DNA of 64,000 nucleotides, taken from NCBI GenBank assembly GCA_009602735.1, contig WELA01001776.1, forward strand, positions 62,001 through 126,000, given 5' to 3'. The position numbers and the translations under genes are program-made. The stretch comes from Mesotaenium endlicherianum. Taxonomy: Eukaryota. The notes beneath the pieces were generated by a model. That model did not search any database. It was not told where the DNA came from and worked only from the letters and a program-made list of their open reading frames with translations. The first letter of the stretch is position 1. Every line of letters begins with the position of its first letter. Of the stretch, positions 16,968-45,767 are shown one piece after another.

Positions 16968-17990
16968 TGCTGTTGAGATTGCTTCGCCTTCAAATAACAG
17001 TCTCGAGCCAGATGTCCAAGCTTGCTGCAAATATAGCAGGGTCCTCTCGGCTTGAGATTCTGTTGCCTGCTCTGGTACTGCACAAGTCCCAACTCCATAG
17101 GTACTGGACCTTGTCCACTCGTGCTTGGCGCTTGAGATCCAAAGTGTCGATACCTCCAAAGTTGTGGCTGCCCCACTGCTTGTGACTATACTCCACAGCG
17201 TCGACCCTCGTTGCCAATGCCATCATTTCTCCAAGACTGGTAGGGTCCTTGAGCGCCACTTCCTTGGCCACAGTTGGCTTGAGTCCCCTCTTGAACTTGT
17301 CCATCATCTCCAACTCGTGCATGGATGGGCATTGAAACACCAGCTCGTCGAAGCGCAAAACATACTCCTGAACGCTTCCTCGCTGACGAAGGCGCACCAA
17401 TAGATCTCGAGCGGTAGCCTCGGATGCAATAGGTTGAAATTGCCTCCTCAAGCCTTCGAAGAGCTGATCAACAGTAGCAAGAACTCCAGACAGCTGTTCT
17501 TCTCGTTCATACCAAGCTCTAGCACTCTTTTGCAGCAAAGTTATGACAAAGGCGACTTGCCTGTCGGGCGTGAGCGCGAAGTACTCCATAAATTTCTTCA
17601 CTCCAAAAATCCATTGATGAACAGGCGGCGATCCACGCTCTCCAGTATAAACTTCAGGCTTAGGCGCACGCACTCCTGATGCGGGTGGAATAACTGGTTG
17701 CACCACTGGGTTAACATGAATCGGTGGCACAACAGATGCAGGTGCCAAACTCGTCGAAGCGGCGTTCCCCATAACAACTCGCACCATTCTCTCCACCTCC
17801 GCGCGCATATTTTGTTAGAATTGGGTATAGACTTCTCCTCCAATTGCATTCGCCATTTGCCTTAGCATCGCCTGCATCTCTTATTGCTCTCTGGTCATTA
17901 TTGGTGCTGCCTGCTGCCCCGCGCGCTCAACATACTCGACATGTTTGCCTCCTCCAGCTGTCGACTGCGACTCCATAGTATAATATGCAA
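16946..17990 (-). pseudogene. gag: Element B gag with zinc knuckle, frameshifted
   Basis: 16990-17808 retrotransposon gag (LRQRGSVQEYVLRF, FKRGLK). CYICSKLGHLARDC in 16946-17176. The start position is approximate. Confidence 0.9.
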
Positions 17991-18013
17991 ACTAGCCCAG
18001 CTCCAATACCAGA

Positions 18014-21494: not shown

Positions 21495-22575
21495 ACAGCT
21501 GACAAGTTTCAGTGCGGGACATCCTGCCCCTGCAATTACCGTTGCGTAGTATCGCTAAAATCCGTGCGAGCGTGCGAGCGTGTGGGCAATATCGCGTTGC
21601 TCGTTGAGTGTTGGTAGTCAAGTGCCTGCCACATTGCGGCCGTGTGGGGTTGCCAGGATTCAGCACCTGAGCGCCTAACATTTTGAATGCAATCGTGTAA
21701 TCACCGTCTGGCGCTGCGTCAATGCACAAACTTATGGACAATGGCAAGTTGCTCGTCGCGACTGCACCTACCATCCTATCAGGTGACGGCGTGCATACAA
21801 ATGTTGCACAGATGCCACGTGTCGGCGTGGCAATATCGGTTGAGAGCGCGGGTGCAAATGAGGCCGACATGCATTGTAGCTGACGGCACTGAATAGCGCA
21901 CAATGTCAAGAGTTCTCATCCTCGAACGCAACCAGCTCGTTGCTGATCGCGTCGTAACTCAATACATCCTCGCCACGTGTTAGAGCAGCGTCGACTGGCG
22001 CTACGACTGCAGTCTTTGCGGCGATGTCGCTCGTGCGCATTAGCCCAAAGTCGCTGCCGAGTCTCCGCGAGTCCGCTTGTGCTCGTGGTTGCTCTATTCC
22101 TGCAGGTAGACAACCTGCAGGTGCCCGACCTTGCCGTAGCACGTGCAGCATTTGGCTTGTCGTTTTGCGCGAAGATACTGTTCCAACGAGAGTGACCCAT
22201 CCTGCTGCAGACTTGGCAGTGGTTATCCTACGTAATGGCGGCCATAGAGATGCGGCTTGGGAGGTGCTGTGCTACTCCGTCGCAGCTCCTGGCGCACAAC
22301 AATGGACGCCAATCCGACGTGATCACTAATGTTGCTGCGTTCGGTTGCAAAACCGACTTTGTCTCTCCACGACTCTGTAGGCGTCACCCAACATGTACTT
22401 GACGCCAGCGCAACCGATGAGAGGTGCATGACTCTCTCTCTCAGGCGTGGCTCTATATCTTGTAGAAATATATTTGCGGCCTCACGATAAGTGTCGGAGC
22501 CCACTTCTCTACGTAGGTGGGTTAAGCAGCGGAACATCATGCAAATCGTCTCTCCCTTGCCGAGGAATAAGTGGT
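21495..22575 (-). mobile_element. Degenerate relic of a family-C element (gag region), left part
   Basis: MMFRCLTHLRREVGSDTYREAANIFLQDIEPRLRERVM and SNISDHVGLAS match element C gag (MMYRRLTHLRRDVGTVTDREPTEIFLRAVEPHLRERAM; SNISDRVGLAS). Confidence 0.8.
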
Positions 22576-22730
22576 TGAAATGAATTGTCTTACCAAATAG
22601 GCGATTGACAATTAATAAAGATCTTTATATCAACAAGTAATCTTTATGGTATTTTTCGTTAACTGGTTCAACGGCAAAAGGACAACACACTAGCAGTGAA
22701 CAACACTCTAGTCAAATGCGAGTAAATTAG

Positions 22731-22865
22731 TGTCGTGCAATAGGAGGTCGGATGCGTATCAATGACACAAGCAATGCATAATATGCAAGCAGGCTTTGCT
22801 GCAATGAAGTCTAAATACATGTGGCTTCATAGCCAAACGATAGTCACGCGTCAAATATTTTAATT
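22731..22865 (-). repeat. Element C repeat B2 (135 bp, element 3' terminus)
   Basis: Near-identical to 23795-23930. Confidence 0.92.
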
Positions 22866-23792
22866 CTGGAAGCACATCATGATCTTCAAGAGTAGTCCTA
22901 TATCAGGGGATATAAGCTGTGACTTTGCTCACCACTTGTGAAGTTCTTTTAGTGAGTGGAAACCAGCAAGGCTTGCTCTTCACAAGAGAGAGACTAAGTG
23001 GTCCTGAAAACACAAGAGATAAAAGTGTAAGCTTTACTGAAAATCTCTGTGACTTACAACTGGCATAATGGGACCTCTAAAAAGATGTTCCTCTAGGGAC
23101 ATCTCTAGCACTTATACTCCTCAAAACCCGGCGTCGTATGCGGCGGATCCAATGCATGTAGTCACTCTAGGAGGCTCTCCTATGTCCACTAATGTGTACA
23201 AGGCATGTACTAGCACTCCTATAGGCTAAGCATAACTCAAACCAATCAAAGCAAAGCACGTAAAATATGCTAAGTGTCTCTCATTGGTGGAGCTTCCCTT
23301 GGGTAGTTCTACCTAGACAACGCCTCAAAAGTGAATATGAAACTTGAGGAAGCTTCCTCTAGGAGTAGGTGATGCAATCACCAAGTTATAGCCTCAATGA
23401 TGCACTTATACTGTGGAAATGCAAGACTTATGTAGTCTAAAGGGCTCGCGGACTTGTGCGCACAAAGCTAGGGGTCCTTGGGGTCACGAATAGTCAACAT
23501 TGTCACCTTTGGGTGCATTGAGTCACAAGTTGGCCATTTGGTGTGATTCCGCTCGGTGCCGAAAGGAGTGCGGACTAGATCGCGTCTATCTCGCTCGATA
23601 ATTAACCAAATGACGCGAAACCGGTGCCATTCGGAAGATGCTTCAATGCACTACACTTTGGTGACTCGAAAATCTAGAGAAGGTCAACATATGGATGCGT
23701 AAAGTCAATGAAAAGTTGGTCTTCCTAGGTTGATGGTTCACACACGTAGAGCTTGGTTTTGTACGTCAACCTCGAGTTAATAAATCATGACA
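22866..23792 (-). repeat. Element C repeat A2 (~927 bp)
   Basis: Near-identical to 34875-35810. Confidence 0.93.
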
Positions 23793-23794
23793 GC

Positions 23795-23930
23795 TGTCGT
23801 GCGGTAGGAGGTCGGGTGCGTATCAATGACACAAGCAATGCATAATATGCAAGCAGGCTTTGCTGCAATGAAGTCTATAATACATGTGGCTTCATAGCCA
23901 AACGATAGTCACGAGTCAAATGTTTTAATT
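23795..23930 (-). repeat. Element C repeat B1 (136 bp), preceded in element sense by a G-rich PPT-like tract
   Basis: Copy of 22731-22865. GGGGGGGA at 23931-23938 on the minus strand. Confidence 0.92.
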
Positions 23931-23943
23931 TCCCCCCCAGCTC

Positions 23944-25755
23944 TCAGCCACAGGCTGATGGGCTGTGATCGCTGTCTAGAGCCAAAGCAGTGCAGTCGCT
24001 ACAAAACCGATCGCCAGCTGGCACGCGGGCCAACGGCAAGTCAAGGCAACCGATGTGGAAGTCGAGGTTGCAGCTGTCGCAGAGCAGCATGCTGACCTCC
24101 TGGCCGGGGCTGTGGCAAATATGGCAAGCCCAGTCCTTGGGCGACCTCGCGTCGCGGGGACGAATCTGCATGTCAAGGTTAGGAAGGTGGCATGGTCCAC
24201 AATTCTTTGTGTGGTCCTTGTGAAGACGGCCATCTGCGCCTTTCAGCTCTAGAACTCCTGACGCCAAGACACGCCTGACGCGTAGGATGACGGGCGAGCT
24301 GTTGGTGTCGAGGGTGTTCTTTGTCTGGCGTCGCAGGTAAACGAAGTCACCTGCGGAGAACTGCAACACCCGCGGGCAATAGGCTCCTCCATGGGTCATG
24401 GCATACCTCAGTGTGTCGCGGTGCTGAGCAATGCTGACGTTGTCCATGGCCATGGGCATCAGGCGTCGAAAGAGCTGTGCACGCTGCCCGATAAGAGCGC
24501 TCCACGTCTCGGGACTGTCCAAGTCCAAAAGGTTCTTGGCCACGGTCCTGGCTGCTGCGGGCAGGACTGGCTGTCGACCGTAGAGAAGGAAGTAGGGAGA
24601 ATGCGAGGCCAAGGAGGCCTACTTATTTAACCTGTACCCCATAGCCAACCATGGGAGGGCGTCGTCCCAGTGGGTGCTGTCGTGGGCCAGGCAGTACTTC
24701 CGCAACCCAAGCTTGACAGTCTGCACCATGCGCTCTACGAGGCCGTCAGCCTGGGGATGGTCGCGGGAGGTGGTGCGGTGATCGATCATCGAGCGCTCTA
24801 GCAGCTTTTGAAAGCTGCCCTGGAACTCTTTGCCTTGGTCGGTGAGGACCTCAGCGCAACCGCCAAAGCGGCTAAGGACGTGATCGAGGAAAGCCTGGGC
24901 AATCCCCTCACTGGCCTTGCTGGGCAACGGCACAAGCTCGATCCACTTGGACATGTGCTCAATCATCACCAAGACATAGAGGTTGCCTCGGCGAGACTTG
25001 GGCAGCTCCCCAGCCAAGTCGAGCGACCACCTGTAGAACAGCCCCTGGATAGGGAGAGGGCTGAGAGCGACGGTGCGGGCTGTGAAGCTCGAGCGCACCC
25101 GGTCGCAAAGTGTGCAGCTACTGACGACGTCGGCGACAACCTTAGTCATGCCGTGCCACCAGTACTCAGCTTGGAGGAGGCTGAGAGTGCGCTTAACACC
25201 GAAGTGTCCAAGCGTCTCGTGCACACGTCGCACCAGCTGGTTGCGTATAGCGGGCTCAGGGACCACCAGGACAGAGCCGTCCGCCATTACTCGCCGCATG
25301 CGCCCCTCCATGAAGACGAAGTCCGAGCTACGCTTGAGGACGCGGTCACGTTCGCGCGCACTAATGCCTGGGACCAGCTCCTTGGCCGTGACGTACTGCA
25401 GCACCGGGGTGTCGTCCCACACGTCCTCGGGCCCGCGCTGCCAATTGTCTTGCTCCTCAGCTGCTGCCAAGGCTAGTCGTCGAGTGGTAACAGTCACCAT
25501 GTCTAGGCTAGTGAGCCCTGCGGGCCGCACGTCGCCGTCAACGGTGAAGGCCAAGAATGCCGCTGCGTGCCAGGCCACTGGCTCATCCTCATCGTGGCGG
25601 GCTACCGTGAGGTCTCCCGAAGAGGGCAGCGGGTTGCGGCTGAGGCCGTCAGCGTCCAGGTTTGTCGACCCTGGACGATGATGCACGTCAAAGGTGTACT
25701 CCTGCAAGATGAGCGCCCACCGTGCGTAGTTGCCCGTCAGGCGCTCCGACGTCAT
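23944..25755 (-). pseudogene. Element C DDE integrase with C-terminal PHD finger (one in-frame stop at 24619)
   Basis: H-H-C-C (VHETLGHFG..CTLC), D (WSLDL), D (LTDQG), E (LVERM). C4HC3 PHD finger CHIC..CDSC..HIGC..CSDC at 23992-24126. Confidence 0.93.
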
Positions 25756-25758
25756 GAG

Positions 25759-27050
25759 TCACTTGAGTGGCTGATGGTCGGTGACCAAGCGGAAGTGGGT
25801 GTCGTAGAGATAGTGCCTGAAATGCACAATCGCCCATACTGCTGCCAGGCACTCCCCCTCATAGGAGCCGTAGTTGCCCTTGGCACGGTTGTTGCTGCGG
25901 TTGGCGTACGCCACCACATGCTTGAAGCCGTCATGCTCCTGTACCAGCACTGCTCCAAGCCCTGCCTGCGACCAGTCGGTGTGGAGGATGAAGGGCTTCT
26001 GATAGTCAGGACGCCGTAGTACTGGGGCGCTCACCAACAGCTCCTTGAGTTTGTCAAACGCTGCCTGCTGCTCTGGTCCCCATACGTAGGCAACGCCCTT
26101 GCGTAGCAAGTCGTTGAGCGGCTTGGCCAGCTCGCTGAACCCAGGCACAAAGCGGCGATAGTAGTTGGCAATGCCAAGGAAGGCCCTCAACTGCGAGAGG
26201 TCGGTCGGCGGCGGGATGCCTGTGATGGCCGAGATCTTGGCCAGCTGAGGAGCCAAACTACTGGAAGACAGAAGATGCCCGAGGTACTCCACCTCCCGGG
26301 TCCCAAAGGTGCACTTGCCTGGATGGCACTTGAGCCCAACGGCCTGCAAGCGGTCCAGAATTGTAGTGATATGCGCCACGTGCTCCTCAAACGTCTCACT
26401 GAAGACGAGCACGTCATCGATGTAGCACCGAGCAAAGGCGAGCCCTGCCAGCTCCTTATCCATGACTCGCTGGAAGGTGGCAGGAGCGTTCTTCAAGCCG
26501 AAGAGCATAGCCCTCCACTCGTAGAGACGCTGCGATCCCCAAAAAGTCGTCTTATGCTGGTCCTCCTTCGCAATGAGTATCTGGTTGAAGCCCTGCCTCA
26601 AATCCAGCACCGAGAACCAAGTACAAGCGCCGATGTCGTCGAAGATTTCGTGAGGGGTCGGCATAGGATATCTGTCCTGCTCAGTGACCTCGTTAAGCTT
26701 ACGATAGTCACCGCACATCCTCTTCTCAGACCAGTTGCCTGAGGCGTCCTTCTTAGTTGGCATGACTGTGGGCGCAGCGTAGGTGGAGGCAGACTCACGA
26801 ATGAGCTGACACTCTTCTAGCTTGCCTGTCTGCGTGCTGATCAGGTCGTCCTCAAAGCGACTGTAGCGGTAGCGCTTCTGGAAGATGGGCACGTCTGTCT
26901 GGAGGGGCATCCTCATAGGGTCGCCTGTGTAGCACCCAAGATCGTGCATGCCGCTGGCAAAGCTGGCACTGCGCCGTGCATCCAGCAATGCCGTTAGCTG
27001 AGCAGCCTGTGCCCTAGTGAGAGTCCCCCCCAGCTTCCAAGTAGGGACAG
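25759..27050 (-). pseudogene. Element C reverse transcriptase and RNase H
   Basis: RMCGDYRKLN, LDLRQGFNQI, FGLKNAPATFQR, YIDD, LHTDWS, VTDHQPL. Confidence 0.95.
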
Positions 27051-27479
27051 CTGGTGGTGGCTCCTGCGCTGCAGCTGGCGCCTCCTGCCCTGCTGCTGGC
27101 GCGATCTGTGTGTCTGCAGGCGTCACCTGTCCTGCAACTGGCTCCACTCGGCCTGCCTCAGGTGCCCTCTCCTCGGCAGCTGCTGCCATCTGCCCTGCAC
27201 CACCTGTAGGCGGCGGAGAGCGTGGAAAAAGAAACGGGGAACGAAACTCCCTGGGTTGCTGTGTGGACTCCTGTCTCCTCCTGCCCCCCCCCAGCAAACC
27301 AGAACGAGGACCAGGACAAGGCGCAGGCGGCTGCTGGGAAGCTGGACCCTCGCGTTGGGAATGCCAAGTCGTACCAGGCGGGGCGCGGCCGTCGTCGTCG
27401 GAATGTCAATCCATGGCGTCATAGAACTGGTCCATCTCAGGATGACGAGCCTGGGCGTAAAGGGGAGTCAGGGCCTGTG

Positions 27480-28430
27480 TTTGCAGGAGAAGCCACGTCA
27501 AGACGTTGGCATCAATAGCCTGGCCAAGGAGACGCACGCGGTTGACCTCGGTGATGCCGTCCACCTGTGTGAGGTGCGGAGGATAGCCCATCGCACGCTC
27601 CATCTCCATGGCACGGGCTCGTTGGAACATGCCAGTCTTGAGGTCAATGATCATGCCGCGCTGGTCGCCCACGTAGGCCGCGCTATCGTAGCGACTCACG
27701 AACGTAGGAAGCGCCCGCGTGACGTCGCGGAGGACCTCACACTGGGCCTGAGAAGGATGCGGAAGGGCGACCACGCGCTGGGCCTGGCGCGCCACGTCGA
27801 GGATGGAGTCAACGTTGCGCGTGTGGCGTGGATGTGCGGCCGCTAACGCCTCAAGCGTGCCTGGCATGGCCAGGTTGGTGAAATAGGCGCGCACACGATG
27901 CGCGAAGGAACCAATCTAAGCGGCGTCGATGACAGCCTCACGACCAACGTAGCTGCTGCAGAGGGCAAAGTCGGCGCTGACGTTGGGCTGCGAATCGTGG
28001 CGGACAGCCACGTTCTCCAACACCCAGGCGAGCGTGTGCGGCGGCTGGCGGTCCTCAACCATGTTGAGGACGCGGAGCAGGTGCCAGAACAAGGCCGTAC
28101 GCGGGTCACCAAGCGCGTTGCCCCGTCCCGCAATGGAGAAGCCCTGGCACTCCCAGCCAGCAATGATGAGGTCAATGGGCCCGAGGCGCGTGATGTGCTC
28201 GGCGGTAATGTTGCGGATGTCCATGGGCCAGTCAGTCTGGGCGCGGTAGAAGGCATGCTCAGGGAAGAGGTCTGGGAAACGCTCGTGGCATAAGGCCATC
28301 TGCCTGTGGGCGACCTGCTGCGCCTCGCCATCGGGGTCCACGTAGACGTAGCGACGTACAGGGATGCCAGCCTGCAGGGTGGCCAACAACCCTGTCGCAA
28401 TGACGGCAAAGAGTTTGACAAGGACAATGC
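27480..28430 (-). pseudogene. DNMT3-like C5-cytosine DNA methyltransferase domain within the element C polyprotein (one in-frame stop at 27916)
   Basis: Motifs in order: I (VLVKLFAVIATG), III (DIRNIT), IV (IDLIIAGWECQGFS), VI (VLENV), VIII (AHRVRAYFTN), IX (EMERAMGYPPHLT), X (RVRLLGQA). Same reading frame as RT and IN. Confidence 0.9.
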
Positions 28431-30399
28431 CGCCGGGACGCTTGTCGAGCTGTGCGGTGTAGATAGGCATAGGAAGGGGGCGACAGCCCAGGGCGGGATC
28501 GCCGGCCTGCGCTGGCGGTGGATAAGAGCGCAGCAGACTGTGCTGATGGGGCCCCATGCGGAGGGCCGTCACTGCAAGCTCTGCGTAGTGGCGAGTAAGT
28601 CAAGGAATGTGGTCGAGCAGCGGCTGCGGGCGAGCCGTGCGAGAATGTGCCTGATAAGTGCGCCAGCGCGCACGCGCGTCTTGCAAGGCCTCCTCGGGCA
28701 CTGGGCGGGCCAGAGCCTGCGCGTCGCGCACGCACTGCTGCTGCCACCGGTCCCTTGTCCTGTAGTCTGCGTGGTGTGAAGCGGCGTGGGCCAGCTGCTC
28801 TGTGGCGGTGCGCTGGGGCAGCTGGGAATGCTGATCAAAGTACGAACGCAGCCGCTCGCAAAGATCCGCCTGAAGGGGCACTGTGCAGACGGAGCGCTTG
28901 TCCCACTGTGCTGCCTGTCGAGGACGAACGAGCTGACGTGGGGCGAGTTGGACTCGCAGGCGCAGCGGCAAAAGAGATGGGAGTTGGACGTGCTCCCGCT
29001 GGTTGCGCTGCATGGGCCCTGCGCGTGTTGCGTGTGGATGAGGATGGAGGTCGCGGAGGCGCGTAGCGGTGCGGGCCACCTTATGAGGAGGTGACCCAGA
29101 CGGCCCGTCGCCGGCTATGTGACTGCGCGGGACGTTGGTAGGCCAGCCAGGCGGCGTGGGTATAATGCGTGGGCTACAGTGGTGGAGGAAGACTGTGCGT
29201 CATGCTCGCGGGGGCGGAGATTGCGCAGACCGTCATACGGCAGTGTGACTGAGCGTGGGCTCGTCTCGCGCAAAGGAGTGACCTCTCTCCCCTCGCGAAG
29301 AGGAGTGACCTCTTGTGCGTCCCTGTGAGTGTCGCGCAGAGGTGTGACCTCGCGTGTACGCCGGTCTAGGGGCAGAGTGCGACGTGCTTAGCGTAGAGCT
29401 GGCCCGGCGTAGGGGGAAGGACCTGTACGCCGAGGACCGAGGATGCTGGTCTTGGCCACTGTCTGATGCGCAGGTCCGGCACGCGGGTCGATAGCGGAGA
29501 AAGGTACCGTGGAGGCAGTGCTGGCGGAGGCGCAACCTGACCAGCCTGTGCTCAGGCTGTTGCCAGCGAACAAGTGTGTGACGTCACGGCACTCGTTGCT
29601 GGTCAAACAGTCGTGCTGTATCGGACGACTAGACCCGCCGGCGCATGGATGGGCTTGACGGAGATTAGCCGTGGTCTCTTGTGAGAGAGAACTAAAGCCG
29701 GGAGGCCCTGTAGGCTGGCGTCGGACGCGAGCTGTAGGCGTGGGCGGCAAAGGCTCTGCCGATGGCTGGGCTGCGGGCTCCTCTGCGGCCTCCTGGGACC
29801 ACTCTTGCCACTCCTCCTCCTCGCTGCTCAATGACGCGTCGTTGGACCTGCCTGGGAACGCTGCCTGCCTCATGGCCTCGTCCTCAGACGTGGTAGTGCG
29901 TGGCCATGAGTCGCCTGTCCTGTGCGACGGTGAGGATGAGGGCGACTGGGAGGCCATGCGGTACTGGATGGCGACCCCCACAGGCACGTCATGCCGTACG
30001 TGGACGTGTGATCTCAAGGAGGGTCCGCTCGTCGCAGGAGGCTGTGGCTGAGGTATGGCTGCTGCGGCTGTGGCTGCGTCATGAGCGTGAGCTGCAGCAG
30101 TAAGGGCAGCCGTGGCAACGGCGTGTGCCTCTACGGCGTCTGCCGCCATCTGACGCATCATGGCGTTATGCGCGGCGTAGATCCGCACTGTCTCCCTGGC
30201 TTGTGCGGCTAAAGCGTTAGCCTGCTCCTGGGGCGTGAGGTGGAGCTCAGCACCAGACAGCTCGGGATCCTCCTCCTGCGTCTCCAGTAAGTCGGCGCCA
30301 ACGGAGACCTCATCATCCTTGGCTCCCCCATTATCGGTCTGAACTACAGACCGATCGTCATCCAGCGCCATGAAGCCGTAGAGGGTGGACTCAGCTGAG

Positions 30400-30800
30400 C
30401 GATGATCCATGATGTCAAGTGGCACAGATGCAGTGCGGGTCCCCCCTGACTGCCAGTCGGGTCGATAGAAGACCCTCTCCACCCAGTTATCCATTGCGGC
30501 GCCAATAGGAAAGAGCACGTTCTGGCCAAGGAGCACGTCGAAGGTCTCGGAGCGAGTGACCAACGCATGCTGGTGGATGGTCGTCTCATCCGGAGTGCCG
30601 GGCCGAAAGGTGAAACGAAGGGCCAGCCGCGTGCGCCCGGTGACGGTCTTGGACGTGCCGGCAGCGGTGTTGATCCGCGTAGGCGAATCCTCTAAGTCGG
30701 CTGACGAGAGGCCCAGCTGGCGGAAGTAGCGCAGGCTGATGAGGACTGGCTGGGCGCCAGTGTCGAACATGATGCGCTGCGGAGCTTACGTGTTGACTAG
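30400..30800 (-). pseudogene. Element C aspartic protease
   Basis: MFDTGAQPVLIS active site and FDVLLGQNVL in ORF 29388-30770. Confidence 0.85.
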
Positions 30801-31367
30801 CACGATGCCCTGCGAATTATCCAAAAATGCAGCGTTAGACGTGCTGATCATGCTGCGCTCATGCGCAAGTCGCGCGGGTGCGAAGAGCACCGCGGCTGCC
30901 GCGTCTGATGCAGACCTGTTGTCAGAGGCGCGCTGGCTGGCCCTGCGCGCCTAGAGCAGTAGCTAGGTCGCCTGCCGTGTGGCCTCCATCGACACGCCAA
31001 GCTCAGCGAAGGAGACTGCGGGCATGCGGTGAAGCGCCAGCGAGATGACCTCGGCGCTGAGCTGCATCGTGGTCATCGACAAGGCTATCGCGTGAGGCGC
31101 GAAGGCCGCTGGCGCTGCTGGCGTGTCCAGCACGCGGAATGAGCGGGGCAGACGCGGCGCCTCCTCCGTGCGACGTCCCTGAACCGGCCCGGCGCGCTTC
31201 TGTGCCACCGCTGGGCGTCCGGCTGCCACCAAAGCGTGCTTGCGCCGTGCGCTGCCGTCTTCTGTGCGGCCTCCAAGTGGCACTGTGCGTGCGCAGCAAA
31301 CCAGAATGGGGCCGCACGCGGCTGCAGCAGCAGGCACAGCCGCTCGGACAGCCAGTACCTGAGCGGC

Positions 31368-31545
31368 TGGCACACCTAGCGCTGGCGTACCTGGCGCAGG
31401 TGCTCCCAGCGCGGATGCACCTGGCGCTGGCGCGTTCGGTGCAGGCGCACCTGGCGCTGGTGTACCTGGCGCTGGTGCTCCCAACGCGGATGCACCTGGC
31501 GCTGGCGCACCTGGCGCTGGCGCGTTCGGCGCAGGNCGCTGGCTC
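31368..31545. repeat. 15-bp coding minisatellite (GCACCTGGCGCTGGC-like, PAPGA units)
   Basis: Repeated GAPAP/GTPAP/NAPAP units. Contains an assembly N at 31536. Confidence 0.8.
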
Positions 31546-33297
31546 GGGTCCTCCAGCAGCTAGCGCCTCGGCAAACGCCGGTGCCTCCGTCGGGACGGCT
31601 GTCCATACCAGCGCCGCTTTGGCCGCAGGCGCTTCGGCTGCTGGTATGAACGCCGGAGCTGGCGCAGGCTTGGCTGCTGGCAATTTAACAAGTGGCGCTT
31701 CGAGGGCGCCGCTGGGCCTGCCAGGTCGCGTCGCCCGACCGGGGCCAGTGTCGGTATCGGCTGCCCTAGGCAAGGCACGTGGCGCCCTCCAGGTAGAGCG
31801 CGCGCTTGCCGGGACCCTCGCTACGCTTATCGCGCAGTTCCAAGGGTTTTGTGCGCAGCCAGGGTTTAAGCCTTGGCTGTGCGCAGCCGTGTGTGTGCTG
31901 TCGCAGCTCCAAACGAAGATACAACCGCACAGCGCGATTGGAGATGTCGCTCCCTGACTTGGGACGACAGTCGTGGCCGCCAGATTTGCGCTGGCTGAGC
32001 CGGACTGCGTGCGCGTGCCAAATGGCAGCACGTGTGCGCAAGTGCTGTACGCAGCGGCTGACGTGGCTGTCGTGAGGTGGTCGCGTGGCGGGCTGCTGAG
32101 CGAGCGTCGCAGTGCTGTGCGCGGCGTGTGCGAGCGTGTGTAGAGAGGCGCACATGTGAAGCTGCCGTCAGGCAAAGTCTCGCCAGCCGCGCACGCGTCA
32201 GGTGCGACGGCTGCTGGCGCGGCTGCCGGGACTGGCGCAGGGGCGGTCGCTGGGAGGCTGCCATGTGGCGCCTCCCAATTGATCTTGGGATTGCAGGGGC
32301 GCGTGGCCGATCCGGCTTCAAGGTCCGCGTCGGCTGCCTTGGACGCCGCCCGTGACGCCCTCCTTCTGGCGCGGGCGTACGCCGAGGCCCCCATAGCGCG
32401 AATTGCGTTGGCGCGGGGATTTTGGGCGCAGCCAGGGTTTAAGCCCTGGCTTTGCGCAGCCGTGAGCGTGCCGTCAGCGCTCCGCACGGCAATCTGGCCG
32501 CACAGCGCAATCAGGGATGCCCCCTCCTGACTAGGAATGGCGATCGCAGCCGCCGAATCTGCGCTGGCCGTGCCGGACTGCGTGCACGCGCCACGTGGAA
32601 GGACGTGTGCGCCGCTGGCGTGCGCAGCTGCTGCTGTGGCTGCCGAGCTGCGATCTTGTAGCTGGCTGCCCGGCAAGTTTTGCGCCGCCGTGCGAGGTGT
32701 GAGCGGACGCGTGAGCGCGCAAATGTGCGCGTGGCTGCCGGCAAGAGCGGCCTGGCCTGCCGAACATGTGGCAAGGGTCGGCGCGTGCTGGACCCTGCTG
32801 CTTGCAGCAGCCAGCAGGGTGAGACCCTCCTGGCGTTGCCGGCTGGTGCGCAGATCTGCGCACAGAATGGCGACGCGTATGGCAAGGGCCACGACAGCCG
32901 TGTGTGCTGCAGACGTGTCACTCAGCTGGCGAGCACGCCTTGTCGCGACAGCTGTCAACACGCAGACTGCTGGCAGCACTGCTGGCGTCAGCAGGACGGC
33001 ACAGGCCAGAGGGGCTGCCGAAGCCTGCGGCTGTGCTGGCGTGTGTGCCGGACCGTCTAGGGGCGCGTTGGGAGCTGCAGCGTCTATGACGCCGGGTAGC
33101 GAGATTGCGTGCGCCTGCAGCCTGCCATCTGGCAGCCCGACCGAACGAGCGTAGCGGCTGCTGACGAACATCAGCGCAGAGTGCGCAGGTCTGGCAGAAG
33201 CGTCTGCGCAGACGTCTGCGGCGCTGGTCGCCGTAGCTCTACCGTGGGGCGGGTGCGTGCGATGCTGCAACGTTGCTGTAGCGCCAGGTGCCAGCCT

Positions 33298-34740
33298 CTA
33301 AGGCTGCCACGTGTTGGCATCGTGAAAGTGCGCAGGAGCTGCGCAGACGCCAGCTGTCGGAGCTGAAGCGTCGGACGACGGGACGCGTGCGAAGAGGGCT
33401 CCGCACGCGTCGTAATTGTCGGTGGAGACAAGACCGCGGAGTCTGACGATCTTTGCGTTGGCCTCTACGAGGGCGTCGCTGACGTCGTCGAAACTGTAGT
33501 AATGAGCTCCGGGGGTCAGCGCGGCGTCCATCGTAGCCGAGGCTGCCGTCATCGGGGGACGTCCACCCGTGCGAGGGTTGCGCATGCCCCGAAGTCCTGC
33601 TGCTGGCGCAGGGCCGTCACGAGCACGCCCGTTCTCGACGTCGCGCTTCTTTTGCAGGCATACGATCTGCAGGTGGCCGGCCTTGCCACAGTAGGTACAG
33701 TCACTGGGCTTGCCATTCTGCACAATAGTGCAGTTCTGGCGAGAATGGCGCGTCTTCCCGCAAGACCAACAGGGGTCGCTTGTCGTGGCGGCCATGGAAA
33801 TGCGGCCATGCGGAGCCCCGCGCTGGTGGGTCTGCTGGGACAGCTGAGAGCGCTGGGGCTGCTGCTGCTGGGGTTGGCGAGCCGGAGTTGGGCACATCGT
33901 CGTGGATGGCAGCACCAAAGACTCCTGGCGAACGCCCGTGGATGCGAGGCCTACACGGTCGCTAATGTTGCTTCGTGCGGCGGCTAAGCTCTGCTTCTCG
34001 ACTGAGAGGTAAGCGTCCTCCAGCGAGTACTTGGAGCCGATGTGGTAGATGAGAGGAGCCATGGCTCGCTCCCTCAAATGTGGCTCTACGGCGCGCAAGA
34101 AGATCTCCGTTGGCTCCCGGTCAGTGACGGTGCCAACGTCTCGGCGAAGGTGCGTCAAGCGGCGGTACATCATGCGGATCATCTCATTCTTGCGGCGGAA
34201 GAAGTGGTGCAGCTCGTACACCTTCTCTTCGGTCGCGGCCTGGAACTCCTCCCTGAGGACGTCCCAGAAGGCCTTGACCGGGTCAGCGAGGGGGGGTCTC
34301 CACTGGGGGTTCTCCCACAGGCTGTGTGCGTGCATAGATCTCGTCACCCTTCAACGAAATGTGTCACGGGCCTCGTAAAGGAGATAGCGCATGAGCGTAT
34401 AGAACACGTCACGCTTAGTGAGCGCGGGCGTCTTAAGCCTCGCGGTCACGAACTCAGCCTCGAACTCTGAGATTGTGTCGTCCAGATCACAGGTTCCTGG
34501 TCTGCCGCTGAAGCGGAAGAGGGAGGACCTGTCAGCCTTGACCTCGTGGTCACCTGCCATGGGATACCAGGAATTGTGGTAAGCCCAATGGGAAGGCTGC
34601 TCAGGGACAATCACAGGGAGCACGAGTGCCGGCTGTTCCCCTTCAGAGGGTTCAATGACAGTACTGAGATCGGAGTCTGAGTCTTCTCCACTAACACCTT
34701 CGTAGTAAGGCTGGTAAGCACGCCCACTACGGGTAGGCAT
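33298..34740 (-). pseudogene. gag: Element C gag with two CCHC zinc knuckles (in-frame stop at 34351)
   Basis: MPTRSGRAY start. CWSCGKTRHSRQNC and CTYCGKAGHLQIVC. Confidence 0.88.
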
Positions 34741-34874
34741 ACGCTGAAGATTCTAATTGCGTGCAGGCAAAGAGAGATCTTTTTAGAAGTAAGAAGTGTG
34801 TACTCTCCAGAGTGAGCACCTCAAGACTGTAATCTGGTAGGAAAACAACTAATGAAGTCTGGCCCAAAAGATCA

Positions 34875-35810
34875 CTGGAAGCACATCATGATCTTCAAGA
34901 GTAGTCCTATGGCAGGGGATATAAGCTGTGACTTTGCTCACCACTTGTGAAGTTCCTCTAGTGAGTGGAAGCCAGCAAGGCTTGCTCTTCACAAGAGAGA
35001 GACTAAGTGGTCCTGAAAACACAAGAGATAAAAGTGTAAGCTTTACTGATAATCTCTGTGACTTACAACTGGCATAATGGGACCTCTAAAAAGATGTTCC
35101 TCTAGGGACATCTCTAGCACTTATACTCCTCAAAACCCGGCGTCGTATGCGGCGGATCCAATGCATGTAGTCACTCTAGGAGGCTCTCCTATGTCCACTA
35201 ATGTGTACAAGGCATGTACTAGCACTCCTATAGGCTAAGCATAATTCAAACCAATCAAAGCAAAGCACGTAAAATATGCTAAGTGTCTCTCATTGGTGGA
35301 GCTTCCCTTGGGTAGTTCTACCTAGACAGCGCCTCAAAAGTGAATATGAAACTTGAGGAAGCCTCCTCTAGAAGTAGGTGATGCAATCATCAAGTTATAG
35401 CCTCAATGATGCACTTATACTGTGGAAATGCAAGACTTATGTAGTCTAAAGGGCTTGCGGACTTGTGCGCACAAAGCTAGGGGTCCTTGGGGTCACGAAT
35501 AGTCAACATTGTCACCTTTGGGTGCATTGAGTCACAAGTTGGCCATTTGGTGTGATTNAGTGTGATTCCGCTCGGTGCCGAAAGGAGTGCGGACTAGATC
35601 GCGTCTATCTCGCTCGATAATTAACCAAATGACGCGAAACCGGTGCCATTCGGAAGATGCTTCGATGCACTACACTTTGGTGACTCGAAAATCTAGAGAA
35701 GGTCAACATATGGATGCGTAAAGTCAATGCAAAGTTGGTCTTCCTAGGTTGATGGTTCACTCACGTAGAGCTTGGTTTTGAACGTCAACCTCGACTTAAT
35801 AACCTAGACA
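34875..35810 (-). repeat. Element C repeat A1 (element 5' terminus)
   Basis: Copy of 22866-23792 with no adjacent B segment. Confidence 0.93.
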
Positions 35811-36407
35811 CTAGCATCAATAATGCAATCAGTAAAACTCATACATAAGCAAGGTTAGAAGACAGTGCGTATCAATGGCTTCTCGCCTTGGATTCAGATC
35901 TCTCTCAGTAAGCTGTACAAGAGAGTTGGCCTCGTTTCCGAATGCCGAACTCGAGAGTAATGCCTAGCATATGTACATGGAATGAGTTTACTGTTCAACG
36001 GCCAGTGCGATGACACCGCCTACCCGGGAGTTAACCACGTTGGTAGGACCTCGGTTAACCAAATCCACCGCNAGACCTCGGTTAACCAAATTTACCGCCA
36101 TCTCCCATCATCCCGAATTACCATCCATCATAGGGATGTCATCTGGCCATTCATCTAGCATATCACACTTAGATGCATATCGAGGCAGTTCGTTGCTACC
36201 GAGTACGGAAGTCAGCTGGTTGTCAAAGAATGTGTCAGCAAGCTGACTTAAGTTGACTTCAGCCTGCTGCTTCCGGCTGAGTCATTAAACTGATATTAAA
36301 TATGAAGTCTAGAAGGCTGATTAACAACTAGAATTCAATAGGCTGAACTTTAATAACTATTATATTTAAATGAATATTATATCTACTAATATACTGATTT
36401 CTTTACA
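35811..36407 (-). repeat. Remainder of the A3 3' LTR
   Basis: Resumes the family A LTR at CTAGCATCAA, ends TTTACA and is followed by the PPT complement. Confidence 0.93.
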
Positions 36408-36521
36408 ATCCCTCCAACTTAACTTGTTGTCGCCTCGACAACATTAATCTACAGAAGTCTTAAATAAGGGAACTGAACGTGACCAGCCTCTCCCACTAGT
36501 TGCCCCCTTTCAGCCTGTCAC

Positions 36522-39382
36522 CTAGGGGGTTGTTCCTGGGTGAAATGAATCTTGCTTATTCAAGATTAATACATTTCGTTTAAATATAAAAGATCAGAGA
36601 TAGGTGGAAGCGTGTGAAATCAGGGAGCGATCTTTGCCCTTACAATGAATTCCGTTTTTACTCATCTACACCCCTTGACTCATTTACCGTAGTGTGCCAT
36701 AGTTGCACACTAACACGAGGCACAAGTAAGAGGCGAGCTTGAGGACTTGAGCTTCTCCTTTAGAAACTCATGGCCTCTTGCCTACCAGGCATGCAAGCAT
36801 GTATATCACAAGCACAACATCAGGGGACTGAATAGCAAAGGCGTTCTCATTCAGGTGACCATAATGTAGCTAAAACACATCCCACTGACTTAGGTGCAAA
36901 ACCATGGAATCTGTCCGCTGTGTGACCCCGAAATGTTAGAGGGCATAACTCTGCCAATACTATTTCAAATTGAGCAAACTGAACGGCAACGAATGCATCT
37001 TGACGAGACCTTTTCGAAAAGTTCTAGTTCGCTCCATTTGGAGCGCAGACGAAGCAACCATGTCAATTTCCGTGAAGGCTGGTCATTAGTAGTAGAAATC
37101 CGACTGTAAAGCCTACTGTCCAGAATGAGGGACCACGAGATCCCAGCCTGCTGTGTACCTAGTGACCACCTGGTTGACCACGGCGCAAGGTGCGCCGTTT
37201 CGTGGGAAACCCGTTAAGTTGGGACCCACGGATCTAGGTTTAACGACCATATTAATGGGTCGGTTGACTGAAGTCCTAATAGTTCAGTTGACTGACGACG
37301 GCTCCGCCCACCCAGGAGTTAACCACACTGGTAGGACATCGGTCTATCGAATCTCAGTCGACCTTCCGACTTTCAGTATACTACGGTCACATGTGCCAAT
37401 CTACAAACAATAATCTAAATGAATGTATCTATCCTCGGCGTACTGAAGCTAAGTATAGTGACTAATATCAAGCGAGCTTACTATATGTCAACCTACCGAT
37501 ATTACATCCTATATATAGCTGATATATAATTCTTAGCAAGCTACACTGTGATACAAAAGTCATCCTGCTGACCTTTTTGACAAAGTAAATAAACTTGTAT
37601 TACATCGACATACATTCATGTAAATGAACTCGCGCATGTAAGTATATTGACGTAATACTTATTTGGTGTTGTATTTATACATGCAATTAATTAAATAAAT
37701 AATGAACTGATTCATTACACTGGGGCTTCAAGATCAGGAGATTGAGATCTGGACCTAGATCTGGACAGCCCTCTAGGTCTGTCAGCTGGCCTTCTAAAGA
37801 ACCCCGTTTGTTCTAAAGTTGGACCTCGAGGAGAACGAAGGATGGTAGCCTGCTCTTCACTCACTTGGGTATTGATCCCCACATAGACAGGCATTCCAGT
37901 AGGATGCTGAAATACATTGGCAAGAGGTACATGTCCTTGAGCAAAGGGGGAGACCGGCATACCTCTGGCCACCCCGCGTGGCCCTCTTCTGAAACCCCTG
38001 TCCTCTGGGGATTTATGCCTGTGTCTGCTGCCAAGTACAGTCAGATCAGCTTCTTAACCTGCTTGGGCAGGTTGGCTGGGGGAGCAAGTGCGGGGTCCAG
38101 TTGCCTCCATGACCGGGATCACGTTCCATATACCCGATCTTGGTTCCTTAGGAAGTGCCCCTGCCTACCCCTGGGTCTCCTGAGTACCAGCTCCTGATAC
38201 TTCTCCTCTGCCTTGTTCTTCTTCCTCATCCCCCTCATCCTCCTCCTCTGAGAGAGTAGAAGTCTCGTCAACTAAGTCGTCCTGCTCTCGGGTAGACATG
38301 GAGTAGTCTACTGACCTCCCTTTCTTAGGGCGCGCTGGAGGTTGTTTGGCCTTCAGCCTGCTGATATCTATCCGGCCTGCATTCTTCGCCCATTTGACAA
38401 AGGCATGCTTTTCCTTAGAGAAGTAGTCGCTCCCCCTCCTCCTGTGCTCTTTGGTCTCTGCATTCATATTGCTCAGGCAGCCATTCAGCCTGGGATCCCA
38501 AGGAGCAATGTGAGGTGGTAGGATGAGGTAGCCGTCTAAGTCATAGTGGAAATCATCGGGTTGGGCTCGGTCACACTCGTGCTTTTTGTTTGTGACGGTC
38601 ATCCACCTCCAAACTGTTGGGTGCTGGTAGTTTTGGGGTCCATGCTCAGCTTTTCTCAGTTTACATGGGAAGCAGTGGGGGAAGAACATCTGCTGTCTTG
38701 CTTCCCTGGCCAAGTACTCCCAGCTCCTTCTCTCAACTTCATTGTAAGCTGGCAATAGTGTGAGGTAGAATACCGTATCCTTAAAGCTATCGGGCCGCAT
38801 GCTCACCATCCTGATGAGTCTCTGATCCCCCACTATTCCCGGTATTGGGACTGGCTTGTTCTCTGAATCATCGGCAAGGTACCGGGCCTGCTCTGCTGTA
38901 TAGCCCACCATCTTGGCATAATCTTCGTAGAGGACCACACCAAAGTGTGTCTCGATGTACCTATCCAGTGCTGCAGCTCCTTCCCTCTGTAGCAGTGTTG
39001 TCTGTTCCAGCCTGTTGATCTCCTGGGCTGCCAGCAATGCTTCCTTCAGGTTATCGAAGTTTTGGCCACCCACCACAGTATACCTGTAAGTGGCCAAGCT
39101 CTTCTGCCTGTCCGCTTCAGCCTTTTTCCTTCTCTCCTCCTCTGCCGCTGCCGCTTCTTCTTGTTGTTTCTTCTGTCTCTCCTCCTCAGCTTTCCTGAGG
39201 TTTTCCGCTTCCTGATCCTTCTTCCTCTGTGCTTCTTCTGTCGCCTCTTGTTGTTTGCGGACCCTTTCTTGTTCTCTCCTGGTGAGGTATGTCGCCGCCA
39301 GCTCCTTCTGGTATTGCTCCATTGTCCTCCTGGCTTCTTCTGCCTTGCGCTTTCTGTCCTCCTTTTGTGTGGTGGGAGCCAT
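36522..39382 (-). pseudogene. A3 extra ORF of unknown function, interrupted by solo LTR D and in-frame stop(s)
   Basis: ORFs 38165-39406 and 37715-37972 are in one frame. Homologous to A2 5996-7660. Confidence 0.8.
36541..37719 (-). mobile_element. Solo LTR of a related family (D), 1179 bp
   Basis: TGAAATGAATC...GATTCATTACA termini as in family A. Perfect TSD CTGGG (36536-36540 / 37720-37724). No internal domain. Confidence 0.9.
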
Positions 39383-39788
39383 TTTGCACATGTAATCAGG
39401 GCACAAGTTAGTAGAATATTGGCCTTTGTCCTAGAAGTTGCAGGAAGGGAGTAAGTTCGTAGTAGAATGGTGTATTTGTTCCTGTTTACCTTACAGGGTG
39501 CTTGCTAGGAGTTGACGTAGTTGCGATGCGCTAGACATAAACATATGAATGTGTTTACAAGTGTGGTCAGTGATGTATGGCTGTGCGAGGCCCTTTTTTT
39601 CCTTCAGCTAAAGGTGCTTTATGTAGGCCAGGCTGTCCCCTCTGTCACTATGTTGACACTTAGGGTTCACATAACTGTCCCTAACTATCCCTTTTTTGCT
39701 CTCGCACACTAACTGTCATATATTTTCCCCTCCGACTTAAATGGAGACAGGACCTCTTGTCACCTTCCCGTGTCAACTGAAATGACTG

Positions 39789-42700
39789 TTAGGGAGGTGC
39801 TCCAGTCGTTCGAAGGTGGAACCATTTCAACGCCCCTTTGGCATTAGTCAAATGGTCTTTAAATTCCCAAGTGTCCCCAGAGGCATCGTAACCCTTCCAT
39901 CGAATGAGGTACTTCATGACATATTTAGACGATCGACGGACCGAGCGCGCGTCTAAAATCTCCTCAACCTCATATTCCTCAGGGTCGCCGTCCCGGACAG
40001 CGGGGATCGGTCCCGGATGGACAGGTAACCGACCTGTGAACAGTGTATCACCTTTGATATAGGGTTCCAGGAAGGAGACATTAAAGACCAGATGACCCTT
40101 GTATTCGGCTGACATGTTCAGTTTGTAAGCATTCTTATCGACACGACGCACCACCAAATAAGGACCAACCCAGACAGGGCCAAGCTTTTTCTTGACCACA
40201 CCAGGGAGGTACAGGTGCTGAGAATGCAGTTTGACCAAATCGCCTGTATAAAAGGTCAGTTCTCGACGGTTCTGATTAGCGTACTTTTGTTGGTTTTCTT
40301 GGGCTCTGTGCAAGTTCTGCTGGACTTCTGACAGGGTGTCAGCAAACTCCTGAGTTAACTGGAGGGAGATCGGATTGTCAATCCCTTCAGGGTGAGTTAA
40401 AGAGTCCCCTAGGACATCTGAGACTTAGGGACTCTACCCAGGCTTAGTTTAAAAGGAGTCTTGCCCGTTGACGCGTGCACCGCACTGTTGATCGCAAACT
40501 GGAATTGAGGTGACAGGTCATCCCAATATCTTGTTTCTGGTTAATATAGGCTCTCAGTACCTCTTGCGGAACTCGGTTAGTTCTCTCAGTCTGCCCATCA
40601 GTCTGAGGGTGGTTTGCTGTGCTGAGCAGCTGTTTGACTCCCATTAATCCCATTAAAGCCCTCCAGAACTTAGAGGTAAATTTTGAGTCTCTGTCTGAGA
40701 TGATATTAGAGGGTAGCCTATGTTGGCATACTACATGGTTGTAGAACTGTCTCGCTGTTTCAAGTGCAGTTACTTTGACAGTTGTGGGGACAAAACTGAC
40801 CATTTTTGTCAGTTTATCCACGACTACCAGTATCGAATCATGCCCATTGGCAGTTCGTGGCAGTGTGACCACCCAGTCCATGGATATTGTTTCCCAGCGG
40901 CCAGCTGGGATGGACAGTGATTGTAAGAGGCCCCCCGGTAATGTGTGCCTAGACTTATTCTTTTGACACTGGTCACAGGACTTAACGTACTTCAAGACCT
41001 CCCGAGGTAATCCCTCCCAATAATAATGTTTTGCCAGTTTGCCAACAGTTTTGGCCTTCCCCAAATGCCCACCCAGCAAACTGTCATGTGCTTGACTCAA
41101 TAAAAGGGACCTTATTTCCAAGTTATTAGGAATGACCAGCTTCAGCCTGCCTGAAGTGGTTTCAGTCACCCAGACTCCTCCCTTAAGCTTATACCCGAGT
41201 GCAGTAGCACGACACATACCAGTAGTGGGGCTGGGCCCAAATGTTGGGTCAGAAAGGTAGGCTTTCCTAGATTGTTCAAGGAAGGACTTTTTCACCTTTA
41301 GTGAATTGAGTGCACACAGGTCTTTATCTAGAGCATGCTGACTAAAGTTCCTTTCTTGCAAATCAGGTCTTCTAGAGAGTGCATCAGCAGGATTCAACTT
41401 CACTGGTTTGTAGTCGATCTGGACTTGAAATTGCTCCAGCATCTAGCTCCAGCGGTTCTCACTCCTTGACTGCTTGGACTTCTTCTGAAAGTGAGTCAGA
41501 GCTAGATGATCTGTAATCACCTTAAAAGCTTTACCATGTAAGTATGCTCTCCACTGTTTGAGTACATGAATGATAGCTAGCAACTCTTTATCATGCACTG
41601 AGTAATTAATCTCCGCTGGATTAAATTTCATAGACTCATACAACACAGGATGCCACTCCTGCCGTACCTTACCATCCTTTGTGGTGTTGTCAGCAGGCTG
41701 CAACAAAATAGCACCCATGGCAAAGTCAAAGGCATCCGTAACCACCTGTACCGGTTTGCTGGGGTCATACACGGCTAGCACTGGGGCAAAACAAAGAGCA
41801 CCTTTAAGGGTCTGGAAGGCCGCCTGCTGCTCTTCCCCCCACACACACCCTATGTCTTTCTTAGTAAGGTCAGTCAGTTTACTGGCCTTTGTGGAATAAT
41901 TCTCAATAAATCTCCTATAGTAGTTAGCCAACCCGAGGAAGGATCTAACTTCAGAGACAGACTGTGGTACTGGCCAATCCCTTATGGTCTGGACTTTCTT
42001 AGGATCCACACTAATGCCTTCTTTACTGACAACATGGCCTAAGAATTCAATAGTTTCTTTAAAGAAATCACCCTTGCTCATTTTAGCATATAAGTGATTT
42101 TTTCTCAGAGTGTCCAAGACTGTCTTTAAGTGTTCAGCGTGCTGAGCTTCATCTTTAGAGAAAATTTAATATCATCCAGGAAAACTTGCACAAACTTATC
42201 CAAATAAGGTATGAAAATGTCATTCATAGCACCCATGAAGGTGGCAGGAGCATTAGTCAGTCCAAATAGCATCACGTTGAACTCATAGTGTCCATAACGT
42301 GTGCGGAAGGCAGTCTTGTGTTCATCCCCCTCAGCAATTCTGATCTGATGATAACCACTCTTGAGATCTATCTTACTGAACACCTTAGCACCAGACAGGG
42401 TATCAAGCAAGTCTTCGATCCTAGGTAAAGCATCCTTGTTCTTTACTGTAATTCTGTTCAGAGCTCTGTGATCCATACACATGTGCATACTGCCATCCTT
42501 TTTCTTAACAAATAGAATGGGTGCGCCGTAAGGTGATTTACTGGGAGAAATATAACCATTTTCCTCAAGCTCTGCTATCTGTGTTTTCAACTCCTCGCTC
42601 TCCACATAAGACAAGCCATATGTGCGTTGCCAGGGTGGTTGACTCTCAGGTAATAAATCAACCCTATGATCTACTTCACTCTTAGGGGGTAGTCCTGGAG

Positions 42701-43699
42701 GTATATTAAATACGTCCGTATACTGAGCAACCATTTTTGCAGCAATAGGGTGCTTCGGAGGGCTTACCTTTTTCTCAACCACTTTTTCAAGTTGAGGAGG
42801 TACCTCTCTTAGCAGCAGACAGAACATTCTGTCTTCCTTCTGGTTCCGGCTTTTGACGAACTCCATTCCATTCAGCAACTTGCATCCTTCTGGAAGCCTC
42901 TTCTTTTCCTTCAGTTGCCATCCACACAGGACAAGAGGAAGAGCACTGGTGGGTGCCAAGTTAGTCTGCCCATCACTGGCTCCTCTCACTTTAACTGTAC
43001 CTCTGCTCCAACATACTTCAACTTGATGTCTATTAAGCGAGGACCTGCCTAGCACGAGATCATAAAAGCCAGTGTTGAGTACCTCAAATGTAAGCATTTC
43101 AGTTAGAACTGCGATGCCAGAACCTAACTGGACCTCAATAGGCTTGGTTATAACTACTCCCGGGATACTTGAGGCATCTCCGAGGAATATTTTTCTATTC
43201 CCCTGGGTGACAGTAGGCAGCCTTAGCCGCTTAACTAAGTCCTTATGGATAAAAGTATGTGACGCCCCTCCGTCAACAAATGCCCTCACCTTCCTACCTG
43301 CAATCATGCAATGCAGTAGGATAGGGGGGACTGTCTTTTCCTGACTTTCGCATTGTTCTCCTGACNNNNNNNNNNNNNNNNNNNNNNNNNNNNNNNNNNN
43401 NNNNNNAACATCAGGTGGAACAAGAGCATNAGAGTGTGCACTCTCTGGACGTCTATATTGCTGATGGTCTCCTTTATCTGGTTGTCAGGCATGCATAGTG
43501 AATCCAGTTCAGCAGGACCCATAATACCTGCTACGAGGGCAGCTAGTGACGACTCACTATCTCTAGCATCCTCACAGTCAGTAGACTGGATTACTGACTG
43601 TTGCTGTCTTTTAAAGGTTGGTCTTTTCTCTCGACCTTCGGAGGGTGCTTGTCTGGACACTGCTCTCTGAAGTGACCTGGCTATTGGCAATAGAAACAA
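39789..43699 (-). pseudogene. pol: A3 pol (PR-RT-RH-IN-chromodomain), disrupted
   Basis: ORFs 42126-43307, 41443-42117, 40444-41442 and 39789-40313 (GPY and chromodomain). Confidence 0.94.
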
Positions 43700-45762: not shown

Positions 45763-45767
45763 GTGGT

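Follow-up and report, generated by a model that had tools for sequence, protein, structure and literature searches.

The rule for LTR retrotransposons, which carry long terminal repeats (LTRs), is that they integrate a linear cDNA on which the ends set by the primers are also the sites where integrase acts, and circular forms are regarded mostly as dead ends. Split direct repeats of the type A..B-A-B are known from the tyrosine-recombinase retrotransposons PAT, Ngaro and TOC1. A Gypsy element with such repeats has been noted once, in Klebsormidium nitens: KnitGypsy-Dnmt3 combines Gypsy domains and a Dnmt3-like methyltransferase in the Pol frame with repeats that the legend to Fig. 4c calls DIRS-like, the DIRS arrangement being A-coding region-B-A-B in Fig. 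1e (de Mendoza et al. 2018, PMC5890265). Here we describe an element of this layout in a 64,000-nt stretch of the Mesotaenium endlicherianum assembly GCA_009602735.1 (contig WELA01001776.1, positions 62,001 to 126,000), hereafter the window. The element occupies the minus strand, to which "element sense" refers, and coordinates are those of the whole window. We consider it probable that this is a decayed Gypsy element inserted as A-internal-B-A-B, with B+A as its likely replicative LTR and an integrase that we predict to have cut an internal palindrome rather than the ends of the cDNA.

The comparison with PAT, Ngaro and TOC1 stops at the split repeats, as the window element has a DDE integrase, TG..CA ends, a 4-bp target-site duplication (TSD), a Ty3-like reverse transcriptase (RT) and no tyrosine recombinase. 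In the copy-out circles of the IS3 and IS30 families, the two ends abut with a spacer of 2-3 bp between them and are opened by a DDE enzyme; this resembles the opening predicted here at the B|A junction, but those elements are bacterial DNA transposons that do not use reverse transcription. Troyka was considered as a split-repeat group and rejected, having ordinary LTRs, CG..CG termini and a 3-bp TSD, as against TGTC..GACA and 4 bp here. In Tf1/Sushi elements and plant Tcn1 the primer-binding site (PBS) shows complementarity to the RNA 5' end of the same element (PMC4600332, PMC6317226), a property for which the present element bears the sequence signature; those reports treat them as ordinary LTR elements, Tcn1 with chromodomains, whereas here the primer-defined ends differ from the inserted ends. 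Integrases of human immunodeficiency virus 1 (HIV-1; PMC1905944, PMC4372172) and foamy virus (PMC1180852) are described as cutting the palindromic junction between two LTRs, much as we predict for this DDE integrase. There, however, the reaction is a back-up route and the palindrome arises from joined cDNA ends, whereas here the palindrome is encoded in the unique 3' region (U3) and the joined cDNA ends would form a separate, non-attachment seam.

The layout, which the initial annotation of this stretch took to be undescribed for a Gypsy element, is thus already on record, without a mechanism. The passages of the 2018 paper that deal with KnitGypsy-Dnmt3 are silent on termini, TSD, priming sites, a PHD finger and any mechanism, and the likeness is by description only. 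In the literature searched, which left most subscription journals and Repbase reports outside it, the name KnitGypsy occurs in one paper and no mechanism was found that accounts for the split repeats of a Gypsy element; the passages of a preprint that mention Gypsy-DNMT3 do not mention repeats (bioRxiv 10.64898/2026.05.21.726589). As far as that literature reaches, the priming sites, the anatomy of the seams and the upstream asymmetry reported below are new, the layout being known from one figure legend.

Layout and recurrence of the element

Self-BLAST of the window gave the order A-internal-B-A-B, with B copies at 22731-22865 and 23795-23930 (95.6% identity; 130 of 135 ungapped columns match) and A copies at 22866-23783 and 34875-35802 (97.1% identity; 907 of 925). 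In element sense, the element runs from TGTC at 35810 to GACA at 22731, between flanks CTAG and CTAA that form a 4-bp TSD with one mismatch. It is inserted in the LTR of a conventional chromovirus-type Gypsy element; this LTR is present five times in the window, and three of four other copies examined hold a single CTAG at the insertion site (the fourth was uninformative, its anchor having been missed), so the ends and TSD are fixed independently. The layout, ends and TSD given in the initial annotation therefore stand, as does its remark that the G-tract resembling a polypurine tract (PPT) adjoins B1 rather than the TG of A2. Its limits for A1, 35810-34875, do mark the match to A2, but contigs of other copies connect B to ~34791; the family's A therefore likely ends near that position, which leaves A2 of the window element 84 nt short at the A|B seam.

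The order protease-RT-RNase H-integrase, with a Ty3-like RT and an HHCC/DDE integrase, fits Ty3/Gypsy (Metaviridae), and the TG..CA ends and TSD agree with the TG..CA ends and 4-6 bp duplications of Gypsy elements. The canonical arrangement of two complete direct LTRs, with a PBS after the 5' LTR and a PPT before a TG-starting 3' LTR, is absent and the repeats are permuted; the element is Gypsy by its proteins and not canonical by its ends. Nor is it a chromovirus, since it has a PHD finger and no Chromo match, and its RT falls outside the branch holding the window's chromovirus. In agreement with the initial annotation, which saw an HHCC/DDE integrase and no recombinase, Pfam found no tyrosine recombinase in 45 of the 47 open reading frames (ORFs) of at least 100 aa (two ORFs overlapping N were left out).

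Relatives were sought among 80 metagenome loci (L numbers), picked by RT similarity alone. B-A-B ends were found in 26 loci and the complete two-ended A-internal-B-A-B order in 13; three pairs of loci are the same insertion, which leaves 23 and 12 independent cases, and one further family (L042) was read by eye. Their termini are TGTCATG..CACGACA, as in the window element, and the TSDs of the 12 are perfect in five, have one mismatch in three and two transitions in three, and are lacking in one, so that the recurrence of A..BAB with 4-bp TSDs, put forward earlier as a check, is borne out. Most TSDs are not NCGN, the target preference of Phygy, although CG decay blurs this comparison. Seven other two-ended copies are A-internal-B, five of them with a TSD (four perfect, one with one mismatch), and a solo A-B with a TSD lies inverted inside L041. 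In an RT tree built by a quick method (107 rows, with 16 of 120 proteins added; midpoint root; Shimodaira-Hasegawa-like approximate likelihood ratio test, SH-aLRT, as sole support), which L090-L093 did not enter as their RT match was too short, all B-A-B elements fall in one clade (SH-aLRT 100) together with the named protein relatives, from the liverwort Calypogeia fissa and the alga Closterium. The B-A-B elements form four lineages, apart from the window's chromovirus; B-A-B and single-B copies are intermixed in the tree, through which the seven A-internal-B copies are scattered. A scan of viral contigs gave 13 distant loci, with B-A-B in none.

In the host, the family is highly abundant, with 11974 and 11747 matching contigs from read runs X1 and X2. 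All four runs, from three studies, contain A|internal joints; at the main A|B joint, depth is 1518, 1957 and 1645 in X1, X2 and X3, which represent one sample.

Some relatives differ in other ways. The long-branch relative L054 (3282-7982) has its methyltransferase between RT and integrase rather than before RT, has a PHD finger, and has no visible B-A-B. L006 (3640-3741), sister to the clade, has a G-tract followed by TG and may have ordinary LTRs, its contig stopping ~100 nt further on. Internal inversions occur in L022, L011, L050 and L072.

Predicted priming sites and the two seams

Positions 34787-34777 are the exact complement of 35095-35085, which begins 30 nt after TATAA, and the resulting 14-bp helix appears in both the minimum free energy and the centroid folds. 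Of 25 independent 5' ends, 17 have the two sites complementary at 10-11 of 11 positions, compared with 3.6% of control 11-mers, and three distinct primer/PBS sequences covary (the window element, the main metagenome family and L019). The PBS after A1 thus carries the signature of Tf1-type self-priming. No TGG-type site, as expected for a tRNA primer, follows A1 in the window element or in 13 loci inspected by eye, no tRNA library having been searched. A G-tract lies directly before B1 in the 26 B-A-B loci. With a self-priming PBS after A and a G-tract before B, the cDNA is predicted to be BA-internal-BA; as these two sites bracket B+A, that unit is likely the replicative LTR, which lends support to the proposal of the initial annotation.

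The two seams of the repeats differ in character. The B|A seam is the palindrome GACA-GC-TGTC in the window element, and in 20 of 25 cases it is GACAGCTGTC or a variant with transitions only; in every family, 113-175 nt would separate its upstream copy from the left end of the cDNA. At the A|B seam, the join is blunt in 15 of 23 cases and deviates by eye in eight, through small losses or gains or, in L065, an insert of ~135 nt of internal DNA with the PPT, 83% like its source, behind an exact A end. In L022, one breakpoint of an inversion coincides exactly with the end of A2 and the other lies 15 nt inside B2. Repeats within one element share more transversions and indels than shuffled pairs do (47 against a mean of 18 and a maximum of 32 for B; 228 against a mean of 93 and a maximum of 175 for A), and no fixed differences separate B1 from B2, a pattern as expected if B2 were recopied from B1 in every cycle. 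Together, the deviating seams, the PPT retained in L065, the L022 breakpoints, the shared private changes and the absence of fixed B1/B2 differences suggest that the A end and the B start were free DNA ends, joined anew in each cycle. Deletions and PPT retention are likewise reported at the two-LTR junctions of HIV PPT mutants (PMC12478370). The L019 family, in which the B+A unit still begins near TG and ends in CA, gives a weak hint that the B|A junction may have been a spare attachment junction that entered the U3 of an ordinary LTR.

A possible route of integration and its alternatives

We propose that the RNA would begin in A1, ~30 nt after the TATA box, and end in A2. Judging from the covarying sequences, its first 11-14 nt would anneal to the PBS that follows A1 and so start minus-strand synthesis, as in Tf1, while the G-tract before B would prime the plus strand, giving a linear BA-internal-BA cDNA whose ends lack a conserved TG..CA. 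Integrase would then cut both strands of GACA-GC-TGTC, with a 2-nt stagger after CA, leaving recessed CA ends with 5' dinucleotides, and both cut ends would be inserted with a 4-bp stagger. The 3'-processed ends of retroviruses, which the products of such a cut would resemble, are established chemistry. Host end-joining would link the true cDNA ends, the A end and the B start; we lean slightly towards their being joined first, in a two-LTR circle, over joining at the target after strand transfer. The upstream seam might be used since it would be the first to become double-stranded once the second strand transfer has taken place: synthesis of ~1 kb would make the upstream LTR duplex, and for the downstream LTR the whole internal region would have to be copied, so that integrase could load upstream first. 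The A-internal-B copies would be dead ends; they would stem from circles with a single LTR, from cleavage of both seams, or from a deletion between B1 and B2 at a later time.

Several observations weigh against this route. Since a two-LTR circle would contain the B|A seam twice, in identical form, the mirror product A-B-A-internal-B is also expected, yet there are none as opposed to 12 of A-internal-B-A-B (two-sided p 0.0005), and B stands upstream of A1 in 0 of 25 independent 5' ends. Because the mirror product is absent, a bias towards the upstream seam had to be added, and the account of it given above is a guess. Self-primer pairing scores below 10 of 11 in eight of the 25 independent 5' ends, and the fold of the whole leader is no more stable than those of shuffled sequences (z -0.65). 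L065 and L022 are single events and possibly rearrangements that followed insertion. RNA reads also span the A|B seam (six reads from one start plus 17 loose-end reads in run X22, and four reads in X24), which the element RNA should exclude; as RNA depth is zero over 26754-30641, they may be read-through of solo A-B units in host transcripts. Finally, the circle, the linear ends and the cut are all predictions from sequence. The two-LTR circle opened at B|A, as envisaged in the initial annotation, therefore holds in part: the A|B seam looks end-joined, but the mirror counts call for an asymmetry, and the closed circle loses some of its force in that repair from A to B at the target would yield the same product.

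Each RNA run has 199-714 reads on the window element, mostly on the repeats; loose ends at 23792 and 23795 represent other flanks at the A start and the B end, and no poly(A) site was seen in these reads. In X22, 11 molecules end at 35064; this lies 31 nt beyond the predicted start, and the signal is too faint and too distant to count. Some 480 reads at 25130-25170 match over ~40 nt only and were set aside as coming from elsewhere.

The alternative closest to the proposed route shares its priming and product and differs in when A and B are joined, with no free circle: integrase would act on the linear cDNA, cut its upstream B|A seam, hold a short B piece and a long piece and insert both, and host repair would join A to B at the target. 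We regard this as possible though rather unlikely, its probability being taken from the joining at the target already named above as the alternative to the circle. The "free" ends of L022 are both joined to an internal break and not to each other, and the short distance of the upstream seam from the left cDNA end could favour such a course; most A|B seams are, however, blunt and exact, and we know of no precedent for holding a 135-nt piece through repair.

Copying as in PAT and Ngaro would have the RNA span A1 to B2, so that A|B is inherited through RNA, the split repeats rebuild the ends, and integrase cuts B|A. This would yield the one-sided order without an added assumption and would agree with the RNA reads that span A|B. 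The conserved, covarying PBS after A1 and the PPT before B1, however, set the cDNA ends at the A end and the B start, and the lack of fixed B1/B2 differences, the PPT retained at A|B and the lack of a tyrosine recombinase in the scanned ORFs further make this improbable. We consider it slightly more doubtful still that a symmetric circle gives both single-cut products, with A-B-A-internal-B collapsing by A x A deletion to A-internal-B. The scattered A-internal-B copies, most with a TSD, and the greater length of A than of B fit this, but it requires that one form has vanished entirely and that 12 of the other persist, and the repeats of B-A-B are equally close. A single rearrangement of an ordinary AB..AB element, or a fault of assembly, is refuted at the level of the family and scarcely credible for the window element, although neither stretch assembled from reads spans its A2|B2 seam, as order, seam and TSDs are the same in independent insertions of four RT lineages (the finding that answers the initial annotation's own reservation about a misassembly or one-off event), A|internal joints occur in contigs of three studies, the layout is published for Klebsormidium nitens, and a 5' end of the form A-B-internal is found in 0 of 27 loci.

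Coding content, surroundings and implications

The polyprotein comprises a gag-like region, an Ala/Pro-rich stretch, a protease, a C5 methyltransferase, RT, RNase H, an H2C2/DDE integrase and a PHD finger (Table 1). The initial annotation was right about the integrase and overlooked the methyltransferase and the PHD finger. The C-terminal motif of the integrase is GPY/F-like. The N-terminal half of the methyltransferase alone had no PDB match, and the version read through the stop (as X) did match. The reading frame from 29199 to 23944 is interrupted by in-frame stops, and the window copy is therefore dead. The Ala/Pro-rich stretch is far shorter in the metagenome relatives and sparsely covered by contigs of other copies. 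Dnmt3-type C-terminal matches occur in many relatives from AT-rich contigs; if the host of these contigs is a land plant, DNMT-bearing Gypsy elements extend beyond charophyte algae.

Table 1. Features of the window element and its insertion site, listed in element sense.
Feature	Position	Strand	Evidence or remark
Left TSD, CTAG	35811..35814	-	Empty host LTR copies hold one CTAG
A1, 5' repeat beginning with TGTC; probably the 3' portion of U3 plus repeated (R) and unique 5' (U5) regions	34791..35810	-	A2 match 35810-34875; family end likely ~34791, from read joints
TATA-like box, 30 nt before predicted transcription start 35095	35120..35125	-	Putative function
Predicted self-primer (RNA 5' end); 11 nt are an exact complement of the PBS, 14 bp if one G-U pair is counted	35082..35095	-	
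Predicted PBS, not a tRNA-type TGG site	34777..34790	-	
Gag-like region in two frames	33298..34752	-	CCHC-like knuckle by eye; no Pfam match
GC-rich Ala/Pro-rich stretch, internal 515-nt duplication (68%)	31003..33297	-	No family match; lowest read depth of element
Aspartyl protease	30500..30785	-	PF13650, E 2.9e-07
Dnmt3-like C5 cytosine methyltransferase, in RT frame, interrupted by a stop	27406..28420	-	PF00145, E 4.7e-10; best PDB matches DNMT3C/3A/3B, E 5e-13
Reverse transcriptase and RNase H	25762..26970	-	Best matches entry 4ol8 and Ty3 Gag-Pol, E 1e-68
Integrase: H2C2 finger, DDE core, C-terminal motif	24150..25260	-	Best solved relatives foamy-virus and Ty3 integrase
PHD finger, polyprotein end	23992..24126	-	PF00628, E 2.7e-08
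G-tract (PPT) directly before B1	23931..23945	-	
B1, ends CACGACA; likely 5' part of U3	23795..23930	-	
Palindromic seam GACA-GC-TGTC, predicted integrase cleavage site	23789..23798	.	Conserved in relatives
A2, 84 nt shorter than in most copies, the loss being at its A|B end	22866..23792	-	
B2, ends GACA	22731..22865	-	
Right TSD, CTAA	22727..22730	-	
3' part of interrupted host chromovirus-type LTR	22576..22730	-	5' part is 35811-36443

The surrounding sequence (1-21019 and 35811-45765) consists of nested conventional chromovirus-type Gypsy elements, 85-94% alike and inserted into one another, with LTRs of ~720 nt, a TGGTATC PBS and a chromodomain at 39789-40424; a second Gypsy family lies at ~14000-18000. 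Directly after the host LTR, 22286-22575 is a decayed gag-like relic, 67% like the gag of the window element (33922-34208), so that the host chromovirus is itself inserted in an older element related to the focal family. A long host gene at 49742-60414 (+) contains many 105-nt (35-aa) repeats of the type ELEGKRRELLEHQVEL, separated by Ala/Gly-rich spacers, and has only weak coiled-coil Pfam matches, below the cut-off.

We tentatively suggest, at somewhat less than even confidence, that a whole streptophyte Gypsy clade uncoupled the ends made by RT from those used by integrase, with a pre-formed attachment junction in U3 and an obligate, end-joined two-LTR circle opened at one chosen seam. If true, this would be an LTR retroelement with a circle as its obligate substrate, and the layout of PAT and Ngaro would have been reached by convergence with a DDE enzyme. 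Programs that find LTRs would mis-bound or miss such elements, calling A..A and losing the true ends and the TSD. In place of the rule that the two coincide, primer-defined ends and integrase ends here sit at different positions, in a very-high-copy family with liverwort and zygnematophyte relatives; the family would offer a natural system in which to test junction cleavage by integrase as a main route, and the proposed route would explain the observation left unexplained for KnitGypsy-Dnmt3 in 2018.

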